Below, piece after piece: positions 2,044-23,441 of a stretch of DNA of 64,000 nucleotides (positions are counted from its first letter, which is position 1; each line of letters opens with the position of its first letter). Below the pieces are notes generated by a model that saw only the letters and a list, made by a program, of their open reading frames with translations, was not told where the DNA came from and did no database searches. The position numbers and the translations under genes were made by a program. This DNA comes from an uncultured Candidatus Saccharibacteria bacterium (GTDB taxonomy: Bacteria > Patescibacteriota > Minisyncoccia > Phycocordibacterales > UBA9973), in assembly GCA_964571085.1 (NCBI GenBank), contig CAZMZT010000002.1, positions 2,784-66,783 on the forward strand, written 5' to 3'.

Positions 2044-2250
2044 ATGAAAGATGATGCCAAAAAGTTGGGAGAAAATCTCAAAAAACTTAGGATCAAAAAA
2101 GATATTAGCCAAATAGAACTCGCCAGAATATTAGGCGTTGATCGATCTTTTGTGAGCAATATCGAAAACGGAAAGAATAATCCGACTCTTTCAACCATTA
2201 CTAGCTTAGCCAAGGCGTTAGGTGTTTCAACTAACGAACTTTTAAAATAA
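2044..2250 (+). CDS. XRE-family HTH regulator positioned like a restriction-modification controller (C) protein
   Basis: 69 aa: ...ISQIELARILGVDRSFVSNIENGKNNPTLSTITSLAKALGV.... Its stop is 1 nt before the start of the helicase/nuclease gene. Confidence 0.65.
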   Translation: MKDDAKKLGENLKKLRIKKDISQIELARILGVDRSFVSNIENGKNNPTLSTITSLAKALGVSTNELLK

Positions 2251-2251
2251 T

Positions 2252-5200: not shown

Positions 5201-5545
5201 ATGGCAAAGGAACATATATTCAAAGACAATACAAAGGCCTCTGTTGATGGTGGTCGAAAACAAGATGCACTTAATCGAGTTAAGTTGCTTGGTGAATTAT
5301 ATCCTCAAGCAAAAGATCTTTGTTTGGACATAATAAGAGCAATAAAAGATCTTGACGCTCTTCCAAATGGTGTGCTTAAGGAGATTGTAGAACTTCGTAT
5401 TGATAAAACTAATCCAGAAAAAGCATATCTTGAACTCAAAGAACTTATTCCAAGCAAGTATATTGAAAGTATCTTTGAAACAGCAGATCGAGCTAATGAT
5501 GACGGTAAACTCATTGTTCTGTCTGAAGAATTAATCGCACTATGA
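2252..5545 (+). CDS. PLD-family nuclease domain fused to an SNF2/SF2 helicase (DEAH-box ATPase); the restriction/translocase-like subunit of a two-gene RM-like module
   Basis: The N-terminus has HSKFYILHN...GSSNLTFSG, a PLD-like HxK...GSxN motif. The helicase motifs are: I, VGLGKSIIAS; II, ILDEAHKHRN; III, LSATPFNN; VI, QRVGRINRI. The ORF is 1097 aa and shares a 4-nt overlap (ATGA) with the downstream methyltransferase. Confidence 0.75.
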   Translation: MSSSITNTGDNTLSSNLKSILPNCDKVDALVGYFYFSGFRDLHHELKDKQIRILVGMDIDKKILDRVSTLKDLNLDSYTTDTKTSSRSIAKDDYIENFSRIFNDTDFFDNDESQQAFEIFLDKIKDGSLQIKKTAQANHSKFYILHNKPEFSTNGITPGIVIEGSSNLTFSGLKGQGEHNRILMEKHYYEDDVKRFESVWADPDNIVITDLDSAETFIKEVKEKIWLYALPNPLLMYYKVLNEYFAVTEIENMKTPKHITGGKFSDLKYQKDAINLGIDRIKKFGGVIIADVVGLGKSIIASAIAHNLGYKTIIIAPPHLESQWKDYTAEFDFKGHIYSTGKIEEALQRHGNDESKLLIILDEAHKHRNEDTDNYKVLHRLCAGNYVMALSATPFNNDPKDIYALIKLFSTPGQSTIRTVENLSMSFHMLFKRYKAVRRDLRKNTKDEGDNSEIKIELHSIADELRKMIEPLIIRRSRLDLEEIEEYKDDLKAQGVAFAKVKDPQLLEYDLGDMFDIYVKTLEKIAPEDRSTSFIGARYKPASYINQGSKFLEKLIEQDDEDGMSAEEKLQRITQAQSNLARFMRRLLVRRFESSVGAFKLSLRNMITSSEAMLDWYENRQEVPIFKKGVLPDSEYLSELDEKELEDTLNKLEDKGLIRIPLSELQPQFGDHLKHDIALLKEIDSEWSDKNSDPKFEFFKQKISQSLAENPNRKIVVFTEFSDTANYVFQKLQKDGFDRVFKYSSEDASDENKRIIRSNFDAGLEESKQSNDFDIIIATDAISEGFNLHRAGAIINYDIPYNPTRVIQRVGRINRINRKVFDELYIYNFFPTLTGELETRTKAISTLKMDLIHTLLGEDTKTLTSEEDLKNYFAKQYKEENSKNESLSWDAPYRNAWLKIKDDKKIMEQISRIPHRSRIARKTKDISGVVAFAKKSGNYVFAFGKTPETVEIVSPQVALPLFNQVIDSEESLQTTVNFDPIYRMAKEHIFKDNTKASVDGGRKQDALNRVKLLGELYPQAKDLCLDIIRAIKDLDALPNGVLKEIVELRIDKTNPEKAYLELKELIPSKYIESIFETADRANDDGKLIVLSEELIAL

Positions 5546-8500
5546 AATTAAACGAAAAATACAATCCAGAATCTTTTGTTAATTTCATTCAAGATTTTCT
5601 TCCTGAAGATTTTAAATTAAGAGAAGAAGATATTGTAATTAACAAAGATAGATATAAAGAGATAACCAAAGCAAAGATTTTGGGTTTTTGTGAATCACTT
5701 GATTTGCATGTTTTGGAAATGGATCATACTCATGATAAAGATCCACGAGTAGCTATTGCGACGGATGCTTTTAAAATTTTGGCAGATCACTGGATCCACA
5801 GGGCTTTAGTTATTTTCAAGAGTAATGATTCTGATAATTATCGCTTTTCGTACCTCACGATAACTCTAGATCTCAATGATAAAAATAAAGTTATTAAAAA
5901 ATACTCTAATGCACGACGGTACTCTTTTTATCTAGGAAGTAGTGCAAAAGTAAGAACTCCAGAACAGCAACTTATTAAGAAAGGAAAGATTAAAGATGTA
6001 GATGACTTACTCAACCGTTTCTCCGTTGAGGTTGTAAACAAGCAATTTTATCTAGAAGTTGCAAAATTCTTTGATGAGCTTGTTTCTATAGAAGATCAAA
6101 ATCTTATTCTTCCTGGAGTGTCTGAGACAGATATAAATACTCGCAAGAGCTTTGCTGTTCGCCTTATTGGACGAGCAATGTTTTGTTGGTTCTTAAAGCA
6201 AAAGAAGTCAGATAACGGTCAGCTTGTTCCCGATGAAATCTTATCTTCAAAAGTTGTGTCAGATAATTATTATCATAATGTACTGGAACCTCTGTTCTTT
6301 GGAGTTTTGAATACTAGTATTGATGCTCGTGATATACGAACTGAACTTTTTGATAAAGTACCATACCTAAACGGTGGTCTCTTTAATCCTCAAACTGATG
6401 ATTATTATGAACTCGACCGTGGTACATTTGCTTCGAAATATATCAATACCCTCAAAATAAGTGATAAATGGTTTAAAGAATTTTTTGAGCTTCTTGAAAC
6501 ATACAATTTTACTATTGATGAAAACACGGTATTTGATCAAGAGCTTTCAGTTGATCCTGAAATGCTTGGTCGTATTTTTGAAAATCTCTTGGCTGAAATT
6601 AACCCAGAAACTGGAAGCAGTGAACGAAAGCGAACAGGAAGTTTTTATACTCCAAGACAGATTGTTGAATATATGGTTGATCAGTCTTTGATTGAATACT
6701 TTAAAACCAAAACAGATATTGAAGACAAGAAACTAAACGCCCTGGTTAGTTACGATTTAACTGACGATACTGAGTATCCTCTAGAACAAAAAGAAAAAGA
6801 GCAAATTATTAACGCGATAGAATCACTTAAAATCCTTGATCCTGCTTGTGGGTCAGGAGCATATCCTATCGGAGCACTTCAAAAGATTGTTTATATTCTG
6901 CAACAAGTAGATCCAGAGTGTACTCTTTGGCTTGATAAGAAACTTCAAGGTGTTCCTGATTTATACAAACAAAAGATAATCAACGAAGTAAAGCAAAACC
7001 CATTTGATTACACACGAAAACTGGATGTAATAAAAAACTCTATCTTTGGAGTAGATATTCAACCAATTGCGGTAGATGTATCTCGTCTGCGATGCTTTTT
7101 GACCTTGGTTGTTGAATCTGAAATTGATGATAATAAACCAAATCGTGGGATAGAACCACTTCCAAACTTGGACTTTAAATTCGTATGTGCGAATAGTTTA
7201 GTTCCTGCCCCAGAACAAGAAAAAACACAAGATCATTCATTATTTGGTGATGAGTTTCAAGATAAACTTTCGGTTGCTGTTGATGCCTACTTTTCTTCTT
7301 CAGGTGAAAATAAAAGAAATGCGAATAATGAAATCCATAAACTGATTGATAATAAAGTTAGGGAAAAATTAGCTCATCTAACTGGTCTTGTTTCTTATAA
7401 TGGAGATAAAAAAATGGAAGATATTCTAGCAAAAATGAATAAGAAGCAAATTGATAAGCATTCTAGAATATTAATCTTGTGGTCTAGTTATAAAAATATC
7501 TTCACAAATAAACCAGTGGATTTCTTTGACCCTCATTATTTTTTTCCTAGTGTTAAAAATGGATTCGATATTATTATTGCTAATCCACCATACGTAAGTA
7601 TTAATCAAATATCAAAAAACAAAGATTCCTTTACCTCTTACCTAAAAAGTGGAGATGCATCTTTGGGTAATTATTTAGGCATAAATTTACACAGCACTCC
7701 GATGTCTAGAAAAAAATATCCGCCGAAGCCTAATTTATACGCATTCTTTTTTGTAATGGCAAAAAAATTATGCACTAGTAATGGGATAATATCTTTCATT
7801 GTCCCGAAAGGGGTTCTAACAGCTAAAGATTTAGATACACTCAGATATTTATTCTTATCTAAAATGCAGCTTTTCTTACTTACTTCATTCAAAGAGGGTG
7901 TATTTAATCATAGTGAGACATCTAGTGGAAAGATTGCCACAAGTAGTTTGTTGGTTTTTTTAAAAAATACGACTATCGATAGCAACCATAAAATCAATAT
8001 ATCGAATGTAACAATTGGAGAATTGGGCAACGATGTATCTTCAAAAATTGACTCCAATATCCTTTTAGAGAATATAGATAATTGGAATTTAATATCAATG
8101 TCTGCTGAACAGTTATCTATACTAGCAAAATATAATAAAGGTAAGGATTTAAGTATTTATTATAATCATGAATCGGAAAGAGAGTCGATTCATAAATTTT
8201 ATTTTGATGTAGGTTTTACCCTAGATAAAAATAAAATAATCAAGGAGGAACCAATAAATCATTCTGAATACTATAGACTTTTTGAGTTTAAGGGAATTAA
8301 AACATACCGTCTTGAAACTAAAGATTATTATCCAAAAAATAAAAATTATATTGCACTTACTAAAAATAGCCAAGGTTATATAGTTCTAGATCAACAATAT
8401 AAAATTATTTGGAGTGTTAAGAACCCATCTGCTTTTGGTTTTACGGATGAAGAAGTTATATTTCCAATGGGTAAAGCCGCTATAATTGCTAGTAATGATA

Positions 8501-8814
8501 AAAATGAAATATTATTTTTACTTTCTATTTTAAATTCTAAAATTACTTGGTTTATTTTAACCATATTATTAAAACACGAGGGCGAAAAAGATATGCTAGT
8601 TCCAATTTCGTCAATAAAAAATTATATTAGAATACCAGATATTAAAAAAGAGCAAAAAAATGAAATTATAAAAATTTCTAATGAAATTACACAGTATAAA
8701 ATAAAAAATGATGAAAAGATGTCTGTAGAGCTTGAGAAAAAGATAGACGATTTGATATTAGATTATTTTGGTTATACTGAAGCTGAAAAAGAAATTATAA
8801 GAAGCTCTAACTAA
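5542..8814 (+). CDS. Eco57I-like gamma-class N6-adenine DNA methyltransferase with a long AT-rich C-terminal tail (target-recognition-like; ~1090 aa)
   Basis: The motifs are: X, TGSFYTPRQIVEYMVD; I, ILDPACGSGAYPIGAL; IV, FDIIIANPPYV. The X-I-IV order indicates gamma class. The ~450-aa C-terminal tail sits in very AT-rich DNA. Confidence 0.8.
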   Translation: MKLNEKYNPESFVNFIQDFLPEDFKLREEDIVINKDRYKEITKAKILGFCESLDLHVLEMDHTHDKDPRVAIATDAFKILADHWIHRALVIFKSNDSDNYRFSYLTITLDLNDKNKVIKKYSNARRYSFYLGSSAKVRTPEQQLIKKGKIKDVDDLLNRFSVEVVNKQFYLEVAKFFDELVSIEDQNLILPGVSETDINTRKSFAVRLIGRAMFCWFLKQKKSDNGQLVPDEILSSKVVSDNYYHNVLEPLFFGVLNTSIDARDIRTELFDKVPYLNGGLFNPQTDDYYELDRGTFASKYINTLKISDKWFKEFFELLETYNFTIDENTVFDQELSVDPEMLGRIFENLLAEINPETGSSERKRTGSFYTPRQIVEYMVDQSLIEYFKTKTDIEDKKLNALVSYDLTDDTEYPLEQKEKEQIINAIESLKILDPACGSGAYPIGALQKIVYILQQVDPECTLWLDKKLQGVPDLYKQKIINEVKQNPFDYTRKLDVIKNSIFGVDIQPIAVDVSRLRCFLTLVVESEIDDNKPNRGIEPLPNLDFKFVCANSLVPAPEQEKTQDHSLFGDEFQDKLSVAVDAYFSSSGENKRNANNEIHKLIDNKVREKLAHLTGLVSYNGDKKMEDILAKMNKKQIDKHSRILILWSSYKNIFTNKPVDFFDPHYFFPSVKNGFDIIIANPPYVSINQISKNKDSFTSYLKSGDASLGNYLGINLHSTPMSRKKYPPKPNLYAFFFVMAKKLCTSNGIISFIVPKGVLTAKDLDTLRYLFLSKMQLFLLTSFKEGVFNHSETSSGKIATSSLLVFLKNTTIDSNHKINISNVTIGELGNDVSSKIDSNILLENIDNWNLISMSAEQLSILAKYNKGKDLSIYYNHESERESIHKFYFDVGFTLDKNKIIKEEPINHSEYYRLFEFKGIKTYRLETKDYYPKNKNYIALTKNSQGYIVLDQQYKIIWSVKNPSAFGFTDEEVIFPMGKAAIIASNDKNEILFLLSILNSKITWFILTILLKHEGEKDMLVPISSIKNYIRIPDIKKEQKNEIIKISNEITQYKIKNDEKMSVELEKKIDDLILDYFGYTEAEKEIIRSSN

Positions 8815-10126
8815 GAGATATTATTTTATTCTTCAATATAATTTTACTCTTAAAACAAGTTAGCAATTCTCGCTTCTCTTCAACTAATCCGTCTTTTAAA
8901 ATAAATTTGGCGTAGTCTCTGATGTCTACGTCTTTTATTTGTATCTGTTGTTTCGTATTCAAGACAGATTGATTAAATCTTTTTATTCTTTCCACCTCAT
9001 ATTTAATCTTTTCTCTCATGCCAATCTCATTGATATTTACTTGATCAATAAGCTTTTCGAATTGCTGTATTAGTTCGATTTCGTTTATATAACCACACTT
9101 ACAGTTCTTATCTTTCGATCTGGTGCATCCATAGTAGATGTGTCTATTTACTGATCCGTCTTTTAGCTTTTTAAACTTTTCATCTGCACATATACCAGAT
9201 CCACAAAGCCCACAGGTCATCATTTTTGTAAAAGCAAATTCTTTTGGTTCTTGAGTTCGTAATGCTTGGCTTTTAACTTGTTCTTGAACCAATTCAAAAA
9301 GTTCTTTATTGATTATTGGTTCATGTCTACCTGTATAAAAGTTTCCGCTTTTTCGTGGATATTCAAAAACTCCATAATAAAATGGATTTTGAAGTATGAG
9401 ATAAATATTACTAAGGGTGAGACCCTTGTTTCCACTTCTAGTTTTAAAATTCAGATCAAATTTAAGCCAGTGAAAAAGCTTTCTACCAGACCACTTTTCG
9501 TAGGCTACTTTTTCAAACATTTGTTTTACTATTGGTGCTCGTTCTGGATCTATGACTACTTCGCATTTTTTGTCCATTCGCTTTTCATTGAGATACCCAA
9601 CAACAGCAGGACCTGGGCGAAGTCCCATTTCACATCTTGTTCGCAATCCTCGTTTTACGTTAATACTTTTATTATCGTTCTCGAGTTTAGCTTGTGAACA
9701 TAGAATCATCAAAAGAAATTTCTCGTTTGGAGAATTTTTGAAATGTTGCCCATATGTTCTAATCTCAAGAATTTTTGTCTCGTCCATAAGATCAACTACT
9801 GAACCAAGATCACCAGCGTTTCTTGATAGACGATCTGGTGCCCAAGTCAGTATTCCGTTATATCTACCTCGACGTATATCCTCCAAGACTTCTCTAAATA
9901 CTGGTCGTTGTCCAGATTCTTTAGCTGAATGAGATTCACGCCTAATATCTACGACGGTTAAGCCGTCACGATCGGCTATTGCAAGCATTTCTTTAACCTG
10001 GGATTCGATAGACAGGGCTTGCTTTTCGTCTGATTCGGTTGATTTTCGAGCATACAGGACATACCGAATCTTGGTTTTTGGTACCTCTGTTCTAACCCCC
10101 AAATTGCTTATATATTGCGTCTCCAT
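8807..10126 (-). CDS. Large serine recombinase (integrase)
   Basis: The N-terminus IRYVLYARKSTESDEKQALSIESQ is a resolvase-type catalytic motif. The size (439 aa), the recombinase domain and a Cys-rich zinc ribbon (CGLCG...C...C..C) follow. Confidence 0.8.
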   Translation of the reverse strand: METQYISNLGVRTEVPKTKIRYVLYARKSTESDEKQALSIESQVKEMLAIADRDGLTVVDIRRESHSAKESGQRPVFREVLEDIRRGRYNGILTWAPDRLSRNAGDLGSVVDLMDETKILEIRTYGQHFKNSPNEKFLLMILCSQAKLENDNKSINVKRGLRTRCEMGLRPGPAVVGYLNEKRMDKKCEVVIDPERAPIVKQMFEKVAYEKWSGRKLFHWLKFDLNFKTRSGNKGLTLSNIYLILQNPFYYGVFEYPRKSGNFYTGRHEPIINKELFELVQEQVKSQALRTQEPKEFAFTKMMTCGLCGSGICADEKFKKLKDGSVNRHIYYGCTRSKDKNCKCGYINEIELIQQFEKLIDQVNINEIGMREKIKYEVERIKRFNQSVLNTKQQIQIKDVDIRDYAKFILKDGLVEEKRELLTCFKSKIILKNKIISLS

Positions 10127-10198
10127 ATTATATTAATGACGCAACTTGAGCGTTTTGCTAAGTCTATGCAGAACTAGTGAAATATTGCATACTCGCGA

Positions 10199-11695
10199 CT
10201 ACTTTTTTTGATCCATATCTACATAATCTCTAAAGTACAGAGGTTCATCATCTCCCATCCAGTACATAAGCCATGTAGATTCTCCAGAGTGTTTATCCAT
10301 CGTTGAGTTAATCAAGAGAGAAAATGCGTCTGCTAAGTCGTCATGTTTTTCTACTCCAAATCCAACAAGTTGCTCGATAAGTCTTTCACACCCTTGTCTC
10401 GGGAATAAAATTTTTGCTGATTTTATTGCAGTTGAAGTAAGGGCAAGTCGTGTCCGCTTGTCTCCTTTGGGTTTGATTGCAGTTGCCTTAACTCCATGAT
10501 GTTCAAGCATTTGCGGTAAAGCTTCCTGATATGCCACGCTTTCAACAAATAACTCATCAGAACTTCTTGTAAGTAAAGTATTGCGAATATCTTTCATGAG
10601 ATCCACCTGTGCAGGAAAATTAAGTTTCTTTGCAATAGGGTTAGGTAGGATGTAGATTCGCAATTTTTCACGGCGTGAATATATGTGAGCGAATACCACG
10701 GCAGTATCATCGGCAGTTTCTGACGCTGATATAGCAAGATCAACTCCTGCATAAGTACCACGATATCCTCGATGTTTTTCTCCTGGTAGTTCGTCATAAA
10801 ATTGAATCCATTCAGGGTAAATAACCTGATCGTCACTTGGAATGATGCGGAGTAAGTATTCCCGTTGCCATGAAATTTCACTAGTAACTTTTAGTTTCTC
10901 GTCTTCTAGATCTTTTTCTGTTGCATATTTTCCAGACCACAAGCACACACCATTTCTATCAATCAATGGATACTCTTTGAATATTCCTTTTGCTTTACCT
11001 TTAGCAATCTCGTCTTTGATACGCATTAAGAGCGAGTCCTCATGAAGTAAGTTTCCAACAATAATTAGTCGAGTATTTCTATCTCCAGCAGGGATAACTT
11101 CACCACGGAGCCAGTTATAGGTCTTTTCTCGACCCTCACGAGTTTTAGCTGATTGCACATCTTCAACATCGTCACAGATTATTAAGTCTGGGCGGTGTTC
11201 ATTGTGGCGAATACCACGAATACTTTGCTCTGCAGAAGCCACGGTGATTCTTGCTCCATGCTTTTTGAATACAAGAGAGAATGAACCCCATTCATCACTC
11301 TCTTCTTGGAATGGTCCAAGATCCTTTTTGAGAACATCGTTACCCTCAAGTTCTGTGCGGATATTCATCATGTGTTGTTTTGCCTGTGCTCGTGTTTGGC
11401 AGAAAATGATACAGAATTTCTTTTGTTGTTTTCCAAGGATTGCCCAGATTGGGTAAGCAGTCGTCACCATTGTTGATTTTCCAGAACCTCGAAATGCGAC
11501 CACATACAAGTTTTCAGTAGTGCTTTTTTCTAGGTTATGAATAATCTCTTTTTGAAAGTCTGCTGTTTCGTACTTCACATAGTGTGCATAGTAGAAGTGG
11601 AAGAAATACAAGAAACTGTCTTTTGTAATCGATGTTCGCACTGAACGATCTTTTATCATCGTATTAACCAGTGCTTTTGGAATTATTTTAGTCAT
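10199..11695 (-). CDS. Phage terminase large subunit (ATPase + nuclease)
   Basis: Walker A is at ...VAFRGSGKSTMV.... The C-terminal acidic nuclease-like region is ...GVDLAIS...DDTAVVFAH.... The size (498 aa) and its position after a small-terminase-like gene fit a large terminase. Confidence 0.6.
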   Translation of the reverse strand: MTKIIPKALVNTMIKDRSVRTSITKDSFLYFFHFYYAHYVKYETADFQKEIIHNLEKSTTENLYVVAFRGSGKSTMVTTAYPIWAILGKQQKKFCIIFCQTRAQAKQHMMNIRTELEGNDVLKKDLGPFQEESDEWGSFSLVFKKHGARITVASAEQSIRGIRHNEHRPDLIICDDVEDVQSAKTREGREKTYNWLRGEVIPAGDRNTRLIIVGNLLHEDSLLMRIKDEIAKGKAKGIFKEYPLIDRNGVCLWSGKYATEKDLEDEKLKVTSEISWQREYLLRIIPSDDQVIYPEWIQFYDELPGEKHRGYRGTYAGVDLAISASETADDTAVVFAHIYSRREKLRIYILPNPIAKKLNFPAQVDLMKDIRNTLLTRSSDELFVESVAYQEALPQMLEHHGVKATAIKPKGDKRTRLALTSTAIKSAKILFPRQGCERLIEQLVGFGVEKHDDLADAFSLLINSTMDKHSGESTWLMYWMGDDEPLYFRDYVDMDQKK

Positions 11696-11697
11696 AA

Positions 11698-12105
11698 TTA
11701 TTTTTTACGATTAATGTTTTTAATAGATTTCGACTTGGTAATTTTTGCTAGCTTGAGAGCTTGCTTTACAATTTTTGCCTGTGAGGGTGTCAGCTCCTCA
11801 TTGTCGTCTTTAGTGGTAATCTCAAGTTTGTTTTTGTAATTATCATTTCGATGACGAAGCCAGAAACTAATCGCAGGATAGTTTTTCTCTTTGATAAGGG
11901 TCAGCAGTTGGCTTTCACTCATGTCATTTACCAATGCGACACCCTCAGAAAGTGCAATATCCATTTTCTTGAGAAAATCTTTGTCTTCTTTTCGCCACCG
12001 ATAGATACTGTTTCGAGATAATCCTGTCTTCTCACATGCAACCTGAACAATTGGTACTTTTCTCAATTCTTCTAAGAACTGATCCTGAAATTTATTCTTT
12101 TTCAT
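11698..12105 (-). CDS. Terminase small subunit-like HTH protein
   Basis: 135 aa with an N-terminal HTH (...TGLSRNSIYRWRKED...). It sits immediately upstream of and is co-oriented with the large terminase. Confidence 0.45.
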   Translation of the reverse strand: MKKNKFQDQFLEELRKVPIVQVACEKTGLSRNSIYRWRKEDKDFLKKMDIALSEGVALVNDMSESQLLTLIKEKNYPAISFWLRHRNDNYKNKLEITTKDDNEELTPSQAKIVKQALKLAKITKSKSIKNINRKK

Positions 12106-13369
12106 AGAAGTTATTAATTACTTGAGCTTTGTGACCAGTCAGCTTTTCATATCGACGAATTGCTAAATCACAAAACACAGGTTCTATCTCTAGGGAATAG
12201 ACCTTTCGACCTAATTGTTCCGCACAGATCATGGTGCTAGCAGATCCAGAGAAGGCGTCAAAAATGATGTCTCCTGGCTTGGTGCAACGCATAATAAACT
12301 TATGGTGCAGTTCAGGATTTTTACTTGTCGCATGTTCCATTTGATTTGCAGGTAATCGTTTAGTTGCCCAAATGTTCGAGATATCTTCCAGAAGTTGATT
12401 ACCAGTTCCATAATCTTTGTTTTGAACTTCATTGAGATTCTTTACCAAATCAGAAATATACGGAGACCCCGTTGTTCCATATACGCAATATTCAAGGCAT
12501 TTATTAAACGCTACGGCAGGTGTCGGCGAAGCATTGTTTTTAATCCAGACATTGAGCCGTCTGTTTTTAACTCCATGTTCCATATAGAGTGTTTGAAATA
12601 CCCACACCCACGCTTCATCGCACCAGAAAGCCACATGTGCATCTTTCGTCGATATAGCGAGTGAAGATTTAAGAACCTTGCGGATAAATTCTTTGTATTC
12701 TTCAGGTGATTGATTATCGTCAAATGTACCTCCGTAGTTGGATTTATTACCAACCCCTTTGTCATAGGAGAGCCCGATATTAAAAGGTGGGTCATTGTAT
12801 ATGGCGGTAGCTTTATCATTTCCAAATAGCTTAGTAACCGCATTCATATCGGTTGAACTAGCACACAATAACTTGTGACCACCCATAACAATAAGATCAC
12901 CAGGCTTTGTTTGTGGTGTTTTGATTTTCTTTAATTCTTTTTCAACATCGAATTTGTCATCCTTGGTATCTTTTTCTTCGTCCCAAAACTTAACTAATTC
13001 TTTTTCGTTGAATCCAGCGAACTGCAAAAGCTCCAGGTCAAAAGACTTAAGCTTTTCAAAATCCCATTCGCCATCGTTGATATTGCTTTCAATAGCAATC
13101 TTGCGACGCTCGTCATCTGATAGTTTGCGATCAGGAATTAATACGTTTACCTGCCTGATACCAAGCTGTATCAAAGCAGTTTTTCTTTGATTGCCTGAAA
13201 TAATCGTATTGTCCGTATCAATAACGATTACACTATGAAAACCACTTTGAATGATTTTCTCTTTTAATTTTTCCATAGCGACCCGTGAGATTTTTCTTGG
13301 GTTTTCTTTCCAAGGGAGTAGGTCTTTGACCTCTCGAACTCCTGTTGTCCATGAAAGTTTTTTATTCAT
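12092..13369 (-). CDS. ParB-like nuclease domain fused to a beta-class DNA (N6A/N4C) methyltransferase
   Basis: The N-terminal ParB/Srx-like region is ...VIVIDTDNTIISGNQRKTALIQLG.... MTase motif IV (IYNDPPFN) precedes motif I (DIIFDAFSGSASTMICAEQLGRK). This is the beta-class order and is typical of phage orphan methyltransferases next to terminase genes. Confidence 0.7.
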   Translation of the reverse strand: MNKKLSWTTGVREVKDLLPWKENPRKISRVAMEKLKEKIIQSGFHSVIVIDTDNTIISGNQRKTALIQLGIRQVNVLIPDRKLSDDERRKIAIESNINDGEWDFEKLKSFDLELLQFAGFNEKELVKFWDEEKDTKDDKFDVEKELKKIKTPQTKPGDLIVMGGHKLLCASSTDMNAVTKLFGNDKATAIYNDPPFNIGLSYDKGVGNKSNYGGTFDDNQSPEEYKEFIRKVLKSSLAISTKDAHVAFWCDEAWVWVFQTLYMEHGVKNRRLNVWIKNNASPTPAVAFNKCLEYCVYGTTGSPYISDLVKNLNEVQNKDYGTGNQLLEDISNIWATKRLPANQMEHATSKNPELHHKFIMRCTKPGDIIFDAFSGSASTMICAEQLGRKVYSLEIEPVFCDLAIRRYEKLTGHKAQVINNFYEKE

Positions 13370-13542
13370 AGAGTTTTTATTTGATTACTTATAAATTTGT
13401 AGATGACTAATCTACTAACTCTATGAAATCAAAAAGGTACATGGTCATGTAATTGTCATAAAATTGAGTTGCATAAAGAAAAAACGCCTATTTAAAGGCG
13501 ATTTTTCAAAGTTATCCACTCAACTTGGTGTCAACTTAGGAA

Positions 13543-14175
13543 TTATTCTTTTTCTATGTGGATTTTTGGATTGATACGATACCCAGATCCTTTCTTTCCT
13601 TGAATAAGTTTTGTCTTCTTTGGGAGTCTCAAAGTATTTATTGCGTAATCATTAAAAGTCTGCACCATTTTTGCTACCGCTTGTGATGAAGGGCAGGATA
13701 GTATTCTCTGTAGGTCTTTTGTTTGTACATATGCATCTCGATCAAGTAGTGTTTCAAGTAATTTCTTTCTTTTTCCATTTTCAGTAAGGTCATATGAAAA
13801 TAGTTTGTCGCCCAAGTGTCTGTCGAGCGATCCATTATCTCTATCGTAGATAATCACATTACTGTCTTGGCTTGAAGATAGAAGTCGCTTGTGATTTTTA
13901 TTTAATTCTTGAAGTTCTTCTAAGATGTCATATTCAACAGGGCGACGGAATACTATTTCAGGATATTCTACTGGTTCAAAAAGTTTTACTTGTTCACGGA
14001 CTCGATTCATTTGCTCAATAATCGGCTGAGCGACTTTTCTTACATTCTCAATCATTTCTGCATGCCTTTTGCCTAATTCTCGAAACTGAGAAATCTGCCC
14101 CTCGCTTAAAGTAGGGGGATGTATTTTTGCCACTAGTTCACCAACGGTTATTGGTTTTTTCTGCTCATCTGCCAT
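13543..14175 (-). CDS. Hypothetical DNA-binding protein (C-terminal winged-helix-like)
   Basis: 210 aa. The C-terminus ...QGKKGSGYRINP resembles the end of a winged HTH. It is divergent from the LexA-like repressor gene. Confidence 0.3.
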   Translation of the reverse strand: MADEQKKPITVGELVAKIHPPTLSEGQISQFRELGKRHAEMIENVRKVAQPIIEQMNRVREQVKLFEPVEYPEIVFRRPVEYDILEELQELNKNHKRLLSSSQDSNVIIYDRDNGSLDRHLGDKLFSYDLTENGKRKKLLETLLDRDAYVQTKDLQRILSCPSSQAVAKMVQTFNDYAINTLRLPKKTKLIQGKKGSGYRINPKIHIEKE

Positions 14176-14195
14176 GTAGTTATGATAGCAAATAC

Positions 14196-14224
14196 TTGCT
14201 TTTTTGTATAGAGTAATTTATACT
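14196..14224 (+). promoter_or_regulatory. Sigma70-like promoter for the LexA-like repressor gene (TTGCTT, 17-nt spacer, TATACT)
   Basis: The hexamers and spacing are read from the sequence. The ATG at 14234 follows 10 nt after the -10 element. Confidence 0.4.
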
Positions 14225-14233
14225 ATTTATACC

Positions 14234-14851
14234 ATGACTAATAACCTTAGTGACAAAGATAAAAAAGCGTTTGCCCTTATCCGTAACAAGATTGTTCATT
14301 ATGGCAAAAGCCCTACGCTTAGTGAGATTAATGAGGTTACAGGTGGAGCTTCTCCACGATCTGCGAGCCTTGTAATTAATCGATTAATTGACGCAGGACT
14401 TATAAAGAAAATCGGACGACAACTTATCCTTACTGGATCGCAGAAAACAGCTTCAATAAGTACTATTGATGTTCCTTTGGTTGGTGCTGTGACTTGTGGT
14501 ACTCCTGTTCTTGCCGAAGAAAATATCCAAGCCTTAATTCCTGTATCAACAGGACTAGCTAAAAAGGGTTCAAAATATTTTCTTTTGCGTGCAATTGGAG
14601 ACTCGATGAATCTTGCAGGAATTAATAGCGGTGATCTGCTTCTGATTCGACAGCAAGACACAGCAGAAGACAATGACAAAGTTGTTGCTCTAATAAATGA
14701 CGAAGCAACCGTCAAAGTGTTCAAGAAAGCAAATGGTGCTGTTGTACTTCAACCGAAATCAACAAACAAAGACCATAAGCCGATTATATTAACAGATAAC
14801 TGCATCATACAAGGAGTAGTCGTTGCTGTGCTTCCTGGTGATCTATATTAA
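14234..14851 (+). CDS. LexA/CI-like repressor (N-terminal wHTH + C-terminal S24 peptidase)
   Basis: The C-terminal region ...LRAIGDSMNLAGINSGDLLLIR...VKVFKK... carries the S24 Ser (GDSM) and Lys dyad. The N-terminus is a LexA-type DNA-binding domain. Confidence 0.7.
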   Translation: MTNNLSDKDKKAFALIRNKIVHYGKSPTLSEINEVTGGASPRSASLVINRLIDAGLIKKIGRQLILTGSQKTASISTIDVPLVGAVTCGTPVLAEENIQALIPVSTGLAKKGSKYFLLRAIGDSMNLAGINSGDLLLIRQQDTAEDNDKVVALINDEATVKVFKKANGAVVLQPKSTNKDHKPIILTDNCIIQGVVVAVLPGDLY

Positions 14852-14855
14852 ATTT

Positions 14856-15368
14856 ATGTCTTATAAAAATAAAACATACGTAGCTTTTGATGGAGATAAT
14901 GATATGAAATATTATCGTTTAATGACTGCATGGAAAGAACATGATCATATAGAATTTGATTTTTTAAATGCTCATGATTTAAATAGCGCAAGAGATACAA
15001 GTACCGAAGAATCAATAAAATCACAACTTAGAATACGAATGGCAAATTCAAAGCAAATGCTTTTATTAGTTGGAGATAATACAAAATATTTAAGAAAGTT
15101 TTTGCCTTGGGAGATAGAACTTGCAAGAAAGAAGGATATACCAATTATTATTGTTAATTTAAATAACAAAAAAGGTTACGACGACAATCTTTGTCCATCA
15201 GCTATTAAAGATTGGAAATATACAATTTCAGTACCTTTTAAACTAAAGGCAATACAATATGCTTTGGATCATTTTCCAGACAACTATCATAAATGGAAAA
15301 ACCACCCTGATTATCAAGACCACAGGTATATCTATACAGATTCAACCTATAACCAACTAGGCATATGA
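14856..15368 (+). CDS. DUF1863/MTH538 TIR-like domain protein (ThsB-like), paralog 1
   Basis: The N-terminus MSYKNKTYVAFDGDNDMKYY, plus ...NSKQMLLLVGDNTKYL...WEIELA...IPIIIVNL..., matches the TIR-like PF08937 pattern. It is paralogous to 16215..16757. Confidence 0.55.
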   Translation: MSYKNKTYVAFDGDNDMKYYRLMTAWKEHDHIEFDFLNAHDLNSARDTSTEESIKSQLRIRMANSKQMLLLVGDNTKYLRKFLPWEIELARKKDIPIIIVNLNNKKGYDDNLCPSAIKDWKYTISVPFKLKAIQYALDHFPDNYHKWKNHPDYQDHRYIYTDSTYNQLGI

Positions 15369-16210
15369 TGAATAGTATTTTTTCAAAAAGAATGGCAATT
15401 AAATTAAGTGTTAATTTTTTTGTCTCACTAGGTGTAATAAGTTCGATAATTCAAATTATTACTTCAAGTTATCCAGACCTTATTTCTAATTATAAATGGA
15501 AAGGATGGTTCCTGTCTGTTTTTATTTGTTTGGTCTTTGCTTTTATTAGAGCATGGCCAAAGAGAAGTTTCTCTGAAACTTTTTCAAATCCTGACGTTAG
15601 AATTGGCATTAAGATTGGAAATATATTTGATCAATCTGGTCATCTTGTTATTGGTTTTAGCGACACTTTCGATACAGAAATTGGTGATGTAGTAAGTAAA
15701 GATAGTATGCAAGGTCAGTTTTTAATTTCTATGTATGAAAATAATCAAAATAAACTTGATACTGATCTTGATGCATTACTTAAGAATGAGGAATCTGAAG
15801 AAGATACTACAAAGACGCGTGGTAAAAACAAGAGATATAAGATTGGTACAGTTGTAGCATTGTCTGGTTTAAATAGAAAATTCTTTTGCTGTGCATATAG
15901 TCGTATGGGATCTGATCTTAAGGCAACATCTGACATAAATAACTTGTGGTCTTCATTACAAAATCTCTGGACTAAAATAAGAGTAGAGGGAGAGCAAAAA
16001 ACTATAGTGATGCCAGTTATTGGCACTAACTTAGCTAGAATTCCTGGTATCTCATTTAAATTGCCAATAAATCTTATTCTTCTTTCATTTATTATTAATT
16101 CAAGAGTGGAACCAATATCGAAAGAGTTAGTACTTATTATACGTGAAGAAGATAAGGAGAAAGTTAATTTATTGGAAATTCAAGATTTTCTAAAATCTCT
16201 TCATAACTAA
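15365..16210 (+). CDS. Membrane protein with two N-terminal TM helices and a C-terminal Macro-like (ADP-ribose-binding-like) domain; ThsA-like effector candidate
   Basis: There are two hydrophobic helices in the first ~65 aa. The C-terminal region ...TIVMPVIGTNLARIPG... resembles the Macro-domain IAFPxISTGxxGxP motif. It overlaps the upstream gene by 4 nt. Confidence 0.45.
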   Translation: MMNSIFSKRMAIKLSVNFFVSLGVISSIIQIITSSYPDLISNYKWKGWFLSVFICLVFAFIRAWPKRSFSETFSNPDVRIGIKIGNIFDQSGHLVIGFSDTFDTEIGDVVSKDSMQGQFLISMYENNQNKLDTDLDALLKNEESEEDTTKTRGKNKRYKIGTVVALSGLNRKFFCCAYSRMGSDLKATSDINNLWSSLQNLWTKIRVEGEQKTIVMPVIGTNLARIPGISFKLPINLILLSFIINSRVEPISKELVLIIREEDKEKVNLLEIQDFLKSLHN

Positions 16211-16214
16211 TCTT

Positions 16215-16757
16215 ATGGCTTACAGAAGTGGAACATACATAGCTTTTCATGCAGACGGAGAAAGTAATCCAACTGCCTCTGATATGAAATACTACAACAC
16301 ATTAAAAATGTGGAAAGTTAGAGATGATGACTTTAGTTTTGTTAATAGTCACGAGAAAACAGGAGCTGTAAGAGACTCAAGTAAAAAAGATACTCTACGG
16401 AGATCTTTAATATCGAGAATGAATAATTCTAAAAACCTATTATTAATAATAGGCTCAACAACAAAAAATGATACAGACTGGGTTCCTTTCGAAATTAATT
16501 ACGCTGTAGAAACTTGTAATATTCCAATTATAGTTGCCTATACGGGGTACAATAAAATAATGGCTCCGTCTGAGCTTTCTCATTTGTGGCCAGCCGAATT
16601 GGCTAAGGCAATTAAAAACAAAACAGTCGGTATTATTCATGTTCCGTTTAAAAAAGAACCCATAGCAGATGCAATCTCTCAATTTGATATGAATAATCAT
16701 CCTAAAACATCCCTTAATTATTACACTGCAGAAACTTATATTAATTGGGGTTTATAA
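16215..16757 (+). CDS. DUF1863/MTH538 TIR-like domain protein (ThsB-like), paralog 2
   Basis: The motifs GTYIAFHADGE...MKYY, ...NSKNLLLIIGSTTKND...FEINYA...IPIIVAY are collinear with those of 14856..15368. Confidence 0.55.
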   Translation: MAYRSGTYIAFHADGESNPTASDMKYYNTLKMWKVRDDDFSFVNSHEKTGAVRDSSKKDTLRRSLISRMNNSKNLLLIIGSTTKNDTDWVPFEINYAVETCNIPIIVAYTGYNKIMAPSELSHLWPAELAKAIKNKTVGIIHVPFKKEPIADAISQFDMNNHPKTSLNYYTAETYINWGL

Positions 16758-16988
16758 ATAAAATTACACTAATCTGTAACTTTTATACTCAAACCTGTGT
16801 CACTTTTGTCACTTTTTATGAACAAGGAAGATAAAAGAAATCCTAAAAATTGGACTAAAGAAGAGACCGATAGAGTGGTCGCAGTATTTCAATGGCTATT
16901 GGAGCAAGATAAAAAGCAGAATCCAGATCGGTATAAAAAACCTACTGCTCAAAGACCGTCGAAATGATAGAATAAACTTATTAAAAAT

Positions 16989-17050
16989 GTCCTTACGGGG
17001 CTTGACCCACCACGGTTCTGGCTCAAGGACGCCAGCAAACTTGAGCTAGC
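16989..17050. repeat. Element-end repeat R1 (~50-bp family repeat plus the 12-bp att-like core ACTTGAGCTAGC at 17039..17050)
   Basis: GTCCTTACGGGGCTTGACCCACCACGGTTCTGGCTCAAGGACGCCAGCAAACTTGAGCTAGC differs from R2 at about 9 of 48 positions. The last 12 nt are identical to the tRNA 3' flank. Confidence 0.6.
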
Positions 17051-17129
17051 ACGAGATGCTTATAAATTGAGCTTTCGAATTAGCAAAAGATCTATACAGT
17101 TATTGAAGAAGCCGTAGGCTAATCCAGAC

Positions 17130-17165
17130 AAAAAACACTTTCAAAAATGAAAGTGTTTTTTGTTG
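17130..17165. terminator. Rho-independent, bidirectional-type terminator (AACACTTTCAAAAATGAAAGTGTT followed by T-run)
   Basis: A perfect 9-bp stem is flanked by an A-run and a T-run. Confidence 0.55.
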
Positions 17166-17208
17166 TTGACTTCTAAAACCATATACCCTATACTATAGGG
17201 TATATGGT
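17166..17208 (+). promoter_or_regulatory. Promoter (TTGACT, 17-nt spacer, TATACT) overlapped by a perfect 31-bp palindrome ACCATATACCCTATACTATAGGGTATATGGT; CsoR-type operator
   Basis: The palindrome spans 17178..17208. It contains ATACCC...GGGTAT half-sites like known CsoR operators, and it covers the -10 element and the csoR start codon. Confidence 0.6.
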
Positions 17209-17491
17209 AAAACAAACACACAATCATGTTCACAAGCACGGTGAGCCAAACACAAAGGCTCGCAAAGTTATTAATATGGCAATAGGAAGTGTTGCTAAGA
17301 TTCCTGAGATGGTCGATGATGGACGATACTGCCCTGAAATTATTCAGCAAATTGATAGTGTCGTAGGTCTTTTACATAGTGCACGAAAAGAATTACTAAA
17401 GGGTCACTTAGAGTCTTGCCTTGCTGAAAGATTAAAGACCGACAAGGAGGGTTCAATCAAAGAATTGCTAAAAATCTACAACATGCAGTAG
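17204..17491 (+). CDS. csoR: CsoR/RcnR-family metal-sensing transcriptional repressor
   Basis: 95 aa with a His-rich N-terminus. ...RYCPEIIQQIDSVVGLLHSARKELLKGHLESC carries the C-H-C metal-ligand signature of the family. Confidence 0.7.
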   Translation: MVKQTHNHVHKHGEPNTKARKVINMAIGSVAKIPEMVDDGRYCPEIIQQIDSVVGLLHSARKELLKGHLESCLAERLKTDKEGSIKELLKIYNMQ

Positions 17492-17529
17492 ATTTTTAGT
17501 GTTTTATTATTAAATTTATATAAAAAATT

Positions 17530-18093
17530 ATGTCTAAAATTTCAACAACATTAGCAATTTCTCTTATGGTAGTAACAAGTGTTTTGGGGTGGGTTGCTGG
17601 GTATGCCAGTACTGCTGACTATAAAATGAGTATGTACGACAAAACAACTATGGATTTTGGTCGTCCAGATCGAACACTCGACCTTCGTTATATTAATGCA
17701 ATGATTGCTCATCACAGAGGAGCTATGCTCTTGGCTACACAAGCAGGTACACAGACACAGCGACAAGAGATGAAAGATCTCTCTGCAATGATTCTTCGCG
17801 ATGAACCAAAAGCAATTGATGAGCTATACACATGGAAAAAAGACTGGTATGGAGATACAAAACAAGTAAAGGACCCAATCGTTTCTAATCTTGGAACGTA
17901 TGATGAGAAATTTGATCTTCGCTTTCTTAATGCACTTATCGCACACCATGAAGCTGGATTGCTCATGACAAAAGAAATAAAGACCAAGTCTAGTAGAACT
18001 GAAATTTTAAATAATGCGGATGCAGTTGATACATTCCTTACAACAACACTTAAACTCTTCAAAGACTGGAGAACACAGTGGTATAACATCTAA
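17530..18093 (+). CDS. DUF305 family secreted/lipoprotein (metal-homeostasis associated)
   Basis: There is an N-terminal signal/TM segment. The duplicated motifs LRYINAMIAHHRGAMLLA and LRFLNALIAHHEAGLLM are the paired HH motifs of DUF305. Confidence 0.6.
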   Translation: MSKISTTLAISLMVVTSVLGWVAGYASTADYKMSMYDKTTMDFGRPDRTLDLRYINAMIAHHRGAMLLATQAGTQTQRQEMKDLSAMILRDEPKAIDELYTWKKDWYGDTKQVKDPIVSNLGTYDEKFDLRFLNALIAHHEAGLLMTKEIKTKSSRTEILNNADAVDTFLTTTLKLFKDWRTQWYNI

Positions 18094-18107
18094 TATAAAA
18101 TCCCTAT

Positions 18108-20378: not shown

Positions 20379-20379
20379 T

Positions 20380-21387
20380 ATGAAAAATTACATACTACAT
20401 GTTTCTGGAACTCATTGTGCGTCATGCAAAATACTAATTGAAGATATTCTTGTTGATCAAGATATTGTCAAAGGTGTTAATGTAAATCTAAAAAATGAAA
20501 TTGTCCATATTGATACTGATAGCAATAGTAGCCCAGAGGAGATAGCGTCATTACTTACTGAAAAAATTAAATCGCACGGATACACTCTTTCTGTTGAGAA
20601 AATAATCAAAGAAAAACAATCTGATGACATTATTTGGAAAGCAATACCAATTGGTCTTGTGTTCTTGATATTATTCTTCATTCTTCAAAAATCAGGTATT
20701 TTGAATCTCGGCATTGGTGGAAAAACTACACCTGCTACAAGTTTTATTATCGGGATCGTAGCTTCAGTTTCGAGTTGTCTTGCAATCGTAGGAGGTCTTG
20801 TGTTATCACTCTCAGCAAAAATATCACAAGATAATGTGAGTGATACAAAAACTTTTGCACTTTTCCATATTGGAAGAATCGGGAGCTTCGCACTACTCGG
20901 CGGAGTACTAGGACTAGTCGGGAATGCTATCGGTATTAGTTTTACATTTACTGCAATTTTAGGAATTATTGCTTCTCTTGTTATGCTATTTCTCGGATTA
21001 AATTTAGTCGGTGTATTCGAAAAAAATAAAATTACATTACCTTCAGGAATCTTCAACTTTTTTCGCAAAATTGAACATAAAACTTTTACACCTCTGATAA
21101 TTGGTTTTGGTACATTCTTCTTACCTTGTGGTTTTACTCAATCAATGCAAGTAGTTGCACTCTCTAGTGGATCATTTATCTCTGGAATGATGATTATGCT
21201 TGCATTTGCTCTTGGGACTCTTCCTGTTCTCTTACTCTTATCATTTGGTGGAGCTTCACTTGCTCACGGGAAGCATGCACCACTATTCTTTAAGTCAGCA
21301 GGTGTCGTAGTGATCGGTCTTGGGATCTTCGCATTGCTCGCTGGTCTTGTAGGTGTCGGTATTATTAACCCTTTGTTTAATATATAA
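20380..21387 (+). CDS. HMA-domain (GTHCASCK) fused to a multi-TM permease-like domain (CcdA/TauE-like); putative copper chaperone-permease
   Basis: The N-terminal metal-binding HMA fold is followed by ~8 hydrophobic helices with a ...FFLPCGF... motif. The start is 1 nt after the copA stop. Confidence 0.4.
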   Translation: MKNYILHVSGTHCASCKILIEDILVDQDIVKGVNVNLKNEIVHIDTDSNSSPEEIASLLTEKIKSHGYTLSVEKIIKEKQSDDIIWKAIPIGLVFLILFFILQKSGILNLGIGGKTTPATSFIIGIVASVSSCLAIVGGLVLSLSAKISQDNVSDTKTFALFHIGRIGSFALLGGVLGLVGNAIGISFTFTAILGIIASLVMLFLGLNLVGVFEKNKITLPSGIFNFFRKIEHKTFTPLIIGFGTFFLPCGFTQSMQVVALSSGSFISGMMIMLAFALGTLPVLLLLSFGGASLAHGKHAPLFFKSAGVVVIGLGIFALLAGLVGVGIINPLFNI

Positions 21388-21394
21388 TTATCAT

Positions 21395-23396: not shown

Positions 23397-23441
23397 TATG
23401 TCTGAGAAGGTTTGAAATGGTATAATAAAAGTGTTAGTAAT

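Follow-up and report, generated by a model that had tools for sequence, protein, structure and literature searches.

Phage-inducible chromosomal islands (PICIs) carry a tyrosine integrase and a primase-replicase module and use the large terminase subunit (TerL) of their helper phage (PMC10085698). The only described satellite family with terL and terS genes of its own is that of the capsid-forming PICIs (cf-PICIs), which also encode a major capsid protein, a portal, a protease and a head-tail adaptor or connector (PMC10085698). Here we analyze a 15.1-kb island at positions 1895-17036 of a 64,000-nt stretch of DNA (hereafter the window; all coordinates are on its plus strand). The island breaks the usual pattern, in which known satellites have either terS alone or terL together with capsid genes. 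On balance, with confidence slightly better than even, we read it as a phage satellite that has a full terminase but lacks capsid genes, is switched by an SOS-type repressor, targets a tRNA gene and packages itself with its own terminase into the capsids of a helper.

Several other mobile elements share parts of this layout. Staphylococcal cassette chromosome elements (SCC, including SCCmec) are cargo islands driven by a large serine recombinase (LSR) that insert at the 3' end of the housekeeping gene rlmH, form tandem or composite arrays and have no transfer machinery of their own. The present island is likewise LSR-driven and stacks at the 3' end of a housekeeping gene, and CcrB is the best NCBIfam match of its LSR (E=3e-35, far under the cutoff). 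However, SCC elements have no terminase, no ParB-domain methyltransferase (ParB-MTase) and no SOS-type switch, target rlmH rather than a tRNA gene and share no core genes with the island. The phiRv1/phiRv2-type mini-prophages of Mycobacterium (~10 kb) also combine a large serine integrase with a terminase but, unlike the island, retain capsid, protease and primase genes and target repeat elements. The PICI-like elements (PLEs) of Vibrio cholerae are LSR-integrated satellites that are anti-phage in effect (PMC6002521, PMC9618062), but they have no terminase genes, encode RepA, integrate at V. cholerae repeats (VCRs) and are tied to one species and one helper phage. Finally, the tycheposons of Prochlorococcus and the marine virion-encapsidated integrative mobile elements (VEIMEs) are tRNA-associated cargo elements of streamlined genomes that show island stacking, some with LSRs and some with terS or a major capsid protein gene (PMC9618062); they differ in their tyrosine recombinases and primase/helicase modules, have no TerL and have no core genes in common with the island.

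Under published definitions (PICI, cf-PICI and P4 from PMC10085698; PLE from PMC6002521 and PMC9618062), the island works most like a PICI-type satellite yet is not a PICI. As in the SaPIs and EcCICFT073, an integrated island of ~10-15 kb combines divergent regulators, a terS-type gene and cargo that includes defense genes with a lack of virion and lysis genes. Its integrase is a serine enzyme, accepted as an analog in SatelliteFinder, and its divergent regulation module uses a LexA/S24 repressor, a protein family other than Stl/AlpA. An earlier reading made from the letters alone (the sequence-only reading) had called the locus satellite- or PICI-like. The broader half of that call holds, as this is a discrete integrative element with packaging, integrase, immunity and defense genes; PICI membership does not, as there is no tyrosine integrase, no primase-replicase genes were found in the island, and a full TerL and a ParB-methylase are present where TerS would be the only packaging gene. 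The terL plus terS pair is shared with cf-PICIs, but no HNH gene was detected in the island and none of the cf-PICI capsid, portal, protease or adaptor genes occurs in it or in the relatives inspected. From the P4-like set (psu, delta, sid, alpha primase, epsilon, alpA and integrase) only an integrase analog and an AlpA-type helix-turn-helix (HTH), the latter within the TerS-like protein, are found. With PLEs the LSR alone is shared (RepA, NixI and TcaP are missing), and the attachment site is the 3' end of a tRNA gene.

Core genes and the island family

The island is organized around a minus-strand operon of ParB-MTase, TerS-like, TerL and LSR genes and a divergent S24 repressor gene (Table 1). 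These five assignments, proposed in the sequence-only reading for 8807-14851, were borne out when the open reading frames (ORFs) of the window were searched with Pfam, PHROGs, NCBIfam and PADLOC and compared with structures using AlphaFold2 (AF2) models, Foldseek and a PDB search. The terminase call in particular survives profile validation. TerL has marginal Pfam matches, meets NCBIfam TIGR01630 (TerL C-terminal domain) at the cutoff and matches T7-type TerL in the PDB search; its Walker A (GSGKST) and Walker B (CDDVED) motifs and the nuclease acidic residues D319, E385 and D452/D453/D456 do not vary among 14 relatives that are 49-81% identical. The TerS PHROGs are matched by 30/30 diverse members of the TerS-like family, and the ParB-MTase is CcrM-like in the PDB search. 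The LSR has the Resolvase, Recombinase and Zn-ribbon domains of an integrative element together with defined att sites and an island at two tRNA-Gln genes; its translation contains the catalytic motif YARKS (YxRxS serine pattern) and its nearest solved structure is SprA of SPbeta (E=1e-12).

The repressor has its real start at the ATG at 14234 and its translation contains VTCG (a UmuD-like Cys-Gly site), GDSM (serine) and VKVF (lysine). Judged from these residues and an N-terminal HTH, it would be an autocleavable repressor of the LexA/S24 type with a Ser/Lys dyad. The possibility that it is the host's own LexA was rejected, as the gene lies inside the defined ends and keeps 95-99% amino acid identity across different hosts along with the element. 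In one relative (L098) an ImmR (HTH_3)/ImmA (Peptidase_M78) pair at 6403-7230 takes the place of the LexA-type repressor while the rest of the core is the same; therefore the damage-responsive switch is exchanged as a module. The remaining operon-side protein, of 210 aa, aligns in Foldseek with CovR (3rjp; target TM-score, TMt, 0.71; probability 1.0), PhoB and others (TMt 0.71-0.75). It is thus a winged-helix regulator and not the capsid or portal homolog that might have turned the locus into an ordinary prophage. It is missing from most other family members and is a candidate activator or antiterminator of the packaging operon.

The absence of virion, lysis and replication genes, which the sequence-only reading had asserted for the ~15 kb, is confirmed by the profile libraries: no ORF of 1895-17036 matches a capsid, portal, tail, lysis or replication family. 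These families are also lacking in the remaining 47 kb of the window, and portal, capsid, tail, lysis and replication genes in every related locus inspected (~100 loci; up to 10 kb around the TerL gene, as far as the contig extends). Additionally, the island and its relatives have no Pfam families for a relaxase, oriT, coupling protein or type IV secretion system, as an integrative conjugative or mobilizable element would have.

Such a gene set could belong to an autonomous new virus whose capsid proteins are hidden, beyond recognition, among the cargo or small ORFs, several of which have no annotation. We regard this as very improbable, given that beyond the six core genes members share only short end ORFs, that the variable bays hold recognizable, non-homologous defense or resistance genes that change from copy to copy, and that the sole sizeable hypothetical protein is the winged-helix regulator.

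The island is not an isolated case. TerL has 3,388 homologs at E<=1e-10 among 8,000 scored candidates from metagenomes, the best 120 of which are 77-96% identical, and an exhaustive search delineates a deep family of 441 clusters at 50% identity (E<=1e-30). Few of these best 120 homologs carry names; those that do come from Paceibacterota, Moraniibacteriota, Colwellbacteria and the 'Patescibacteria group'. A scan of species-representative genomes (one per species) gave 207 island loci, and two complete genomes with the island are CP011215.1 and CP175956.1. Gene context was counted in 80 of the 207 loci, using as denominators the loci whose sequence reaches the place of the gene. TerL has a TerS-like gene immediately before it in 75/75, and a ParB-MTase gene is present in 68/68. 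Downstream, 59/72 have an LSR gene in the same orientation (31 of these within 300 bp, the others behind a 0.9-8 kb insert); upstream, 45/65 have a LexA-like gene in divergent orientation. A deeper subclade from IMG/VR (L108-L112; labels of this kind denote related loci and contigs compared with the window island) has two tandem TerL paralogs between TerS and LSR, 48-50% identical to the window TerL, and many of its members have a second methyltransferase. There is good support for placing 1895-17036, as an intact copy, in a large and conserved family of Patescibacteria islands found mostly in metagenome-assembled genomes of the Paceibacteria/Parcubacteria type. To judge by the full-text literature that we searched, the family is apparently undescribed.

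Comparison of the window with six relatives indicates strong purifying selection on all six core genes, with a ratio of nonsynonymous to synonymous substitution rates (dN/dS) of 0.006-0.08 at dS 0.3-1.4 (~0.3 for lexA, 0.5-1.4 for the other five). TerL has the lowest values (0.006-0.008), followed by LSR, TerS and ParB-MTase (~0.02-0.03), LexA (0.02-0.08) and the 210-aa regulator (0.05-0.07). As a separate observation, dS of the lexA-like gene is 0.28-0.39 versus 0.5-1.4 in the other core genes, which suggests that the gene either was exchanged more recently or is additionally constrained at the nucleotide level, by a cis site (pac, for example) or by the antisense ORF 14299-14724.

These values bear on the other explanation that the sequence-only reading had offered, namely a decaying prophage: a temperate phage that has lost its structural, lysis and replication genes and is eroding. 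The packaging genes are indeed phage-derived, the neighboring copies at 17037-23489 are degraded, and TerL is truncated or interrupted in some relatives (L058, L092). However, this virion-less gene set is found again in each of the related loci inspected, including those in which TerL identity is as low as 44%, the core is under the selection just described, the ends are intact with a 99.8% twin at another tRNA gene, and non-coding control regions are constrained above synonymous sites. Furthermore, portal, capsid or tail genes or pseudogenes, the signature of a prophage, were not found downstream of TerL, where the LSR follows after 72 bp and where the inserts of relatives consist of diversity-generating retroelement (DGR), restriction-modification (RM), membrane-protein or MoxR/VWA cargo. 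For this copy we consider decay most improbable.

Possible packaging and the source of capsids

The satellite reading can be pictured as a cycle. The LSR takes the 3' end of a tRNA gene as its insertion site, one end of the element mimics that 3' end, and newcomers stack in tandem at the same tRNA. Cleavage of the repressor, either RecA-type or phage-triggered, would derepress the operon by way of a structured leader in which a terminator lies close to the promoter and the start codon is sequestered. With the help of a directionality factor, the LSR would then excise the element, TerS would recognize a pac site within it, and TerL would cut the DNA and pump it into procapsids that, we infer, are given in trans by a co-infecting or resident helper phage. 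The methylase would pre-methylate the DNA against the restriction of the next host, and upon entry into a repressor-free cell the same operon would express the LSR and lead to integration.

A satellite way of life suits a terminase that is complete and intact yet unaccompanied by capsid genes, and the variation within TerL is consistent with docking to varied partners. T7-type terminases contact the portal with their C-terminal tail, and across the family the conservation of TerL is lowest in its last 38 residues. Additionally, a comparison that included L001 and L015 uncovered an intragenic mosaic: TerL of L015 is identical to that of the window over residues 1-154, and 69/69 differences fall within residues 155-497. 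This swap and the C-terminal variability both fit such docking.

A number of results weigh against packaging into helper capsids. No helper phage was identified: the best TerL found by tblastn in INPHARED, from Mu-like phages, is 27% identical, and neither a matching phage TerL or portal nor an encapsidated form was found. All TerL relatives of at least 44% identity in IMG/VR are in capsid-less modules where the context is readable, and the next relatives, in protein and family-alignment scans, are at most 34% identical; this context reading covers IMG/VR relatives of at least 44%, and the exhaustive search adds relatives of 35-45% identity. Because of this gap the window terminase is shared with no known phage, which leaves no evident portal for it to dock on. 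Scans with two distant representatives added one further in-module locus and nothing else. TerL is also the most conserved protein of the island, unlike what would be expected of a protein that tracks diverse helper portals. The TerS-like protein had no match in a profile-versus-PDB search and its AF2 model is poor (predicted local distance difference test, pLDDT, 53). No circular or excised form was found, as one metagenome scan for the junction of the left and right ends gave 2 contigs, both of which are tandem junctions or remnants. Finally, no primase, helicase-primase or Rep gene occurs among the ORFs of 1895-17036 or in the conserved core of relatives. A pac-type terminase would thus have no evident supply of concatemers, for which lateral (in-situ) packaging, or else the tandem arrays, might speculatively substitute.

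Several of these points would be accommodated if the terminase had a role outside the capsid: it could process or amplify the element after excision, supply competent neighbors with unit-length DNA or sabotage phage packaging, and spread would be by transformation or generalized transduction. The restriction of this TerL clade to capsid-less modules far from known phage TerLs speaks for such a role, as do its extreme conservation, its constant linkage and apparent co-transcription with the LSR across a conserved 72-bp spacer, the tandem paralogs of one subclade and the defense genes that the island otherwise carries. CPR (candidate phyla radiation) bacteria also commonly encode competence machinery. 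Yet phage late operons typically open with just such a ParB-MTase/TerS/TerL series controlled by an SOS-type switch, no function beyond capsid packaging is known for a complete ATPase-plus-nuclease TerL with TerS, and no PADLOC defense model matches TerL or TerS. We consider a non-capsid role possible, though rather unlikely.

A capsid-less terminase that packages DNA must obtain its capsids from somewhere, and in a split, domesticated or gene transfer agent (GTA)-like system the genes for capsid and tail would be found at a different place in the host chromosome or be carried by a second element, the island giving packaging specificity only. Known GTAs do have dispersed loci. This arrangement is nevertheless improbable in view of the horizontal mobility of the island among divergent hosts, its presence in only a minority of genomes and the lack of virion genes both in the other 47 kb of the window and within 10 kb of TerL, as far as the contigs extend, in the related loci inspected.

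Ends, attachment sites and tandem copies

Comparison with relatives that hold other cargo defines two conserved terminal segments, which place the ends at 1895 and 17036 and agree with the ~15 kb originally estimated. The right end (RE) directly follows the CCA of a tRNA-Gln gene, the sole Rfam match in window positions 1-24000. Its sequence is identical in L008, L009, L015, L062 and L153, the tRNA acceptor stems of which differ, and a direct repeat, AACTTGAGCTAGC, occurs at 1894-1906 and again at 17038-17050. The left end (LE) finishes at 17036 with GGCTTGACC(C/G)ACCACGGTTCTGGCTCAAGGACGCCAGC, beyond which four relatives have unrelated host DNA. The LE arm resembles the 3' end of a tRNA, with GGTTC...CAGC at an equal 23-nt spacing, and because of this mimicry the crossover is placed at the CAGC/CCA end of the tRNA.

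In every element a perfect palindrome centered on GCTAGC stands right after the tRNA CCA, as TTGAGCTAGCTCAA or, in other subfamilies, TCGTGCTAGCACGA; loci with it at the same position are L016, L020, L023, L029, L038-L045, L060 and L085. It could be a P' site of the recombinase, a terminator or processing signal of the tRNA, or a packaging signal. A crossover at its center was considered and rejected, as host DNA lies directly behind the LE arm in four single-copy relatives and L029-type elements repeat only the tRNA 3' end.

Relatives occupy the 3' ends of tRNA-Gln, Glu, Ser, Asn, Trp, His and Lys genes, with the tRNA facing the LSR side in 27 loci, and the tRNA used roughly follows the LSR similarity group. 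Several subfamily elements have on either side a direct repeat of the tRNA 3' end, 15-22 bp long, and the two repeats are separated by 12-19 kb. One relative (L153, contig JAHZTO010007551.1) is 99.76% identical over 15.2 kb and sits at tRNA-Gln(UUG) between flanks unrelated to those of the window, which is direct evidence of recent movement. Other elements are 85-89% identical at the nucleotide level in hosts with non-aligning flanks, and in L012 the LSR has been swapped (58% identical, versus 96-97% for its other genes). A further contig (L154, JGI 3300056850, 15,315 nt) is 99.5% identical and begins exactly at the LE arm; its right end stops 12 bp short within the palindrome and continues into unrelated sequence, owing to either another junction or an assembly break. 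Neither of these element-sized contigs (L153, L154) has a terminal overlap.

The window also contains the remains of earlier insertions. A 36-bp LE arm occurs three times (17001-17036, 22623-22658 and 23454-23489; chance expectation 0), delimiting an older degraded copy, E1, and a second remnant, E0. The copper module and LSR fragment of E1 belong to older, internally deleted copies at the same tRNA because of the RE-like start, the identity of the LSR fragment and a layout of LSR and convergent copper cargo that is the same in L010 and L058. Similar tandem junctions are present in L009, L150 and L151. The LSR could re-use an occupied site by attP x attL or attP x attR recombination, or by taking the tRNA-mimicking arm as a new attB.

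Table 1. Features of the island and of the adjoining degraded copies in the window
Feature	Position	Strand	Basis or remark
tRNA-Gln(CUG), intact, CCA encoded, with its 3' end as bacterial arm of attL (attachment site)	1821-1894	+	ARAGORN; Rfam tRNA, 53 bits
Right end (RE), directly after tRNA CCA, ACTTGAGCTAGCTCAAAGATAGCTAG with 14-bp palindrome TTGAGCTAGCTCAA	1895-1920	+	Shared by relatives
XRE-type HTH regulator, 68 aa	2044-2250	+	phrog_8, E=4e-20; Pfam HTH_3/HTH_31 in L001, L153
Cargo bay 2, gene 1: PLD/HKD nuclease-SNF2 helicase fusion (DrmD/BrxH-like)	2252-5545	+	Pfam PLDc_2, SNF2-rel_dom, Helicase_C; PADLOC 'HKD+Snf2', E=3e-32
Cargo bay 2, gene 2: type IIG-like restriction-methyltransferase (Eco57I family)	5542-8814	+	Pfam Eco57I, E=1.5e-22; PADLOC REase_MTase_IIG, E=1.7e-66
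Large serine recombinase (LSR), integrase	8807-10126	-	Pfam Resolvase, Recombinase, Zn_ribbon_recom; phrog_95, E=8e-62
TerL-LSR spacer, 72 bp	10127-10198	-	With 5' part of LSR (9990-10198), peak of nucleotide conservation, 95-97%
TerL (ATPase and RNaseH-like nuclease)	10199-11695	-	phrog_38 'terminase large subunit', E=5e-78, residues 15-472
TerS-like HTH protein, 135 aa	11698-12105	-	phrog_4044/4102/309; Pfam Phage_AlpA-type HTH above cutoff
ParB/Srx-domain N6/N4 methyltransferase (ParB-MTase), first gene of packaging operon	12092-13369	-	N6_N4_Mtase, E=1e-26; phrog_498, E=1e-71; ParB PHROGs
Structured leader before ParB-MTase, 173 bp	13370-13542	-	96-97% identical (six elements)
210-aa regulator, long N-terminal helices and C-terminal OmpR/PhoB winged helix	13543-14175	-	AF2, pLDDT 77; Foldseek
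Divergent switch region, 58 bp	14176-14233		Promoter scan, sequence, palindrome
LexA-family S24 repressor, 205 aa	14234-14851	+	NCBIfam TIGR00498 (LexA equivalog), 130 bits versus cutoff 111; Peptidase_S24, E=8e-27
Cargo bay 1: Thoeris	14856-16757	+	Pfam ThsB_TIR, ThsA_Macro; PADLOC
Thoeris ThsB TIR	14856-15368	+	PADLOC ThsB, E=1e-69/1e-70 (two ThsB genes)
Thoeris ThsA Macro	15365-16210	+	PADLOC ThsA, E=1e-82
Thoeris second ThsB TIR	16215-16757	+	PADLOC ThsB
56-aa conserved ORF at left end	16797-16967	+	85-98% conserved in 13 loci
Left end (LE) terminal arm, GGCTTGACCCACCACGGTTCTGGCTCAAGGACGCCAGC	16999-17036	+	Host flanks of relatives diverge right behind it
LE-RE junction, expected form, ...GGACGCCAGC/NN/ACTTGAGCTAGC...
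E1, older degraded copy	17037-22658		LE arm, LSR fragment, layout
E1 RE-like start	17038-17130
E1 copper cargo, CsoR-like	17204-17491	+	Pfam
E1 copper cargo, DUF305	17530-18093	+	Pfam
E1 copper cargo, Cu P-type ATPase	18108-20378	+	Pfam
E1 copper cargo, HMA-DsbD	20380-21387	+	Pfam
E1 copper cargo, cupredoxin	21353-21790	+	Pfam
E1 LSR 3' fragment, last 450 bp, 158-aa Zn-ribbon ORF	21783-22259	-	77% nt identical to 8826-9272
E1 LE arm	22623-22658
E0, second remnant	22659-23489		203-aa ORF 22785-23396 and LE arm 23454-23489

Control regions, cargo and implications

The control regions of the island are exceptionally conserved. In a sliding-window comparison among six elements the divergent switch is ~95% identical, and together with the leader and spacer (Table 1) this non-coding DNA is more conserved than synonymous sites in coding regions. 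In a further set of 7 elements the switch is invariant, and the leader keeps 95-100% identity between elements with dS 0.7-1.0. The promoter of the lexA-like gene is found where the sequence-only reading had placed it, with TTGCTT at 14196-14201 and, after 17 bp, TATACT at 14219-14224; the promoter scanner left it out because the -35 element fits just 3/6 of the consensus. The opposite promoter is TATACA-17-TATCAT (14210-14182). A 5-4-5 palindrome, AGCAAATACTTGCT at 14187-14200, is the unique exact palindrome in the switch and a candidate operator.

The leader before ParB-MTase contains AAGTTGA direct repeats with an 11-bp period (13520-13526 and 13531-13537), a spacing that would suit an OmpR-type winged helix. 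It also has an intrinsic terminator (13485-13500) and a predicted 11-bp stem, formed by 13417-13427 with 13365-13375, that buries the AUG of ParB-MTase; its RNA fold has a free energy of -46.4 kcal/mol (z=-5.9). Most other members have a different conserved leader of ~120 nt upstream of ParB-MTase, TGCGTAGTAAAAAGTAGAATAG...GCCTATTCCGCGCAAGAAATAG-[variable hairpin]-CTATTTCGTGTGTGGAATAGGCTTTTT, with a 21-bp stem rich in conserved G.U pairs, a variable apical hairpin, a terminal U-run and six pairs that show compensatory changes (L007, L016, L018-L027, L029, L033, L038-L050, L054, L058, L071-L076, L082-L091, L099 and L101). This leader resembles terminators of the lambda tR' type, which lie close to the promoter, and may act as a target of antitermination or as a small RNA. 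We infer that antitermination or translational unmasking governs the packaging operon once the repressor has been cleaved.

Cargo sits in three variable bays that hold defense systems, DGRs, small membrane proteins and copper resistance. The two defense-like modules recognized in the sequence-only reading are a PLD-SNF2/type IIG-like RM module and a Thoeris (TIR/Macro) system. On the repressor side, family members carry a cyclic oligonucleotide-based antiphage signaling system (CBASS; CD-NTase and Cap15), a caspase-like protease, Thoeris variants or AAA ATPases, and on the LSR side RM-like, type III or type I RM and copper modules. Between TerL and LSR are found DGRs (bAvd and reverse transcriptase) with type III RM, MoxR/VWA genes or small membrane proteins; examples are L012 (11605-19124), L098 (11635-18610), L117 and L120, and the DGR parts adjoin a protein of 302-311 aa. 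The last cargo gene converges on the LSR with an 8-bp stop-codon overlap in both the intact copy (8807-8814) and the degraded one (21783-21790; CTAACTAA / TTAGTTAA); therefore the cargo bay begins exactly at the LSR stop. In the degraded copy a perfect palindrome, CCATATACCCTATACTATAGGGTATATGG at 17166-17200, overlaps a TTGACT-17-TATACT promoter before the CsoR-like gene and is probably the operator of the copper repressor of that cargo.

Among the small proteins, the 68-aa XRE-type HTH probably controls the neighboring RM-like cargo. The 56-aa ORF at the left end has no PHROG match and is a candidate recombination directionality factor; PHROGs gave nothing informative for the small regulators and end ORFs. 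The remainder of the window, 24-64 kb, encodes housekeeping proteins, among them ThyA, DHFR, SHMT, dUTPase, ArgRS, IleRS, CysRS, S6, SSB and RNase J.

It is possible, though we hold this with somewhat less than even confidence, that these islands are an unrecognized satellite class specific to CPR/Patescibacteria, with a radiation of tRNA-targeting LSRs and a TerL lineage long outside virus genomes, and that they are a major vehicle for the exchange of anti-phage, DGR and metal-resistance genes. The hyper-conserved leader RNAs hint at an unstudied mechanism of control of late operons. A deep TerL clade with no virion linkage wherever context is readable makes the portal specificity of the terminase directly testable, and the tRNA-specific LSRs, whose attP/attB pairs can be inferred for Gln, Glu, Ser, Asn, Trp, His and Lys, are a ready source of new site-specific integrases. 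To our knowledge, few plasmids or conjugative systems have been described in CPR/Patescibacteria, and gene exchange among them is poorly understood. With 207 loci, more than 3,000 TerL homologs and Thoeris, CBASS, RM, DGR and copper cargo, this island family would be a concrete and testable vehicle for such exchange.

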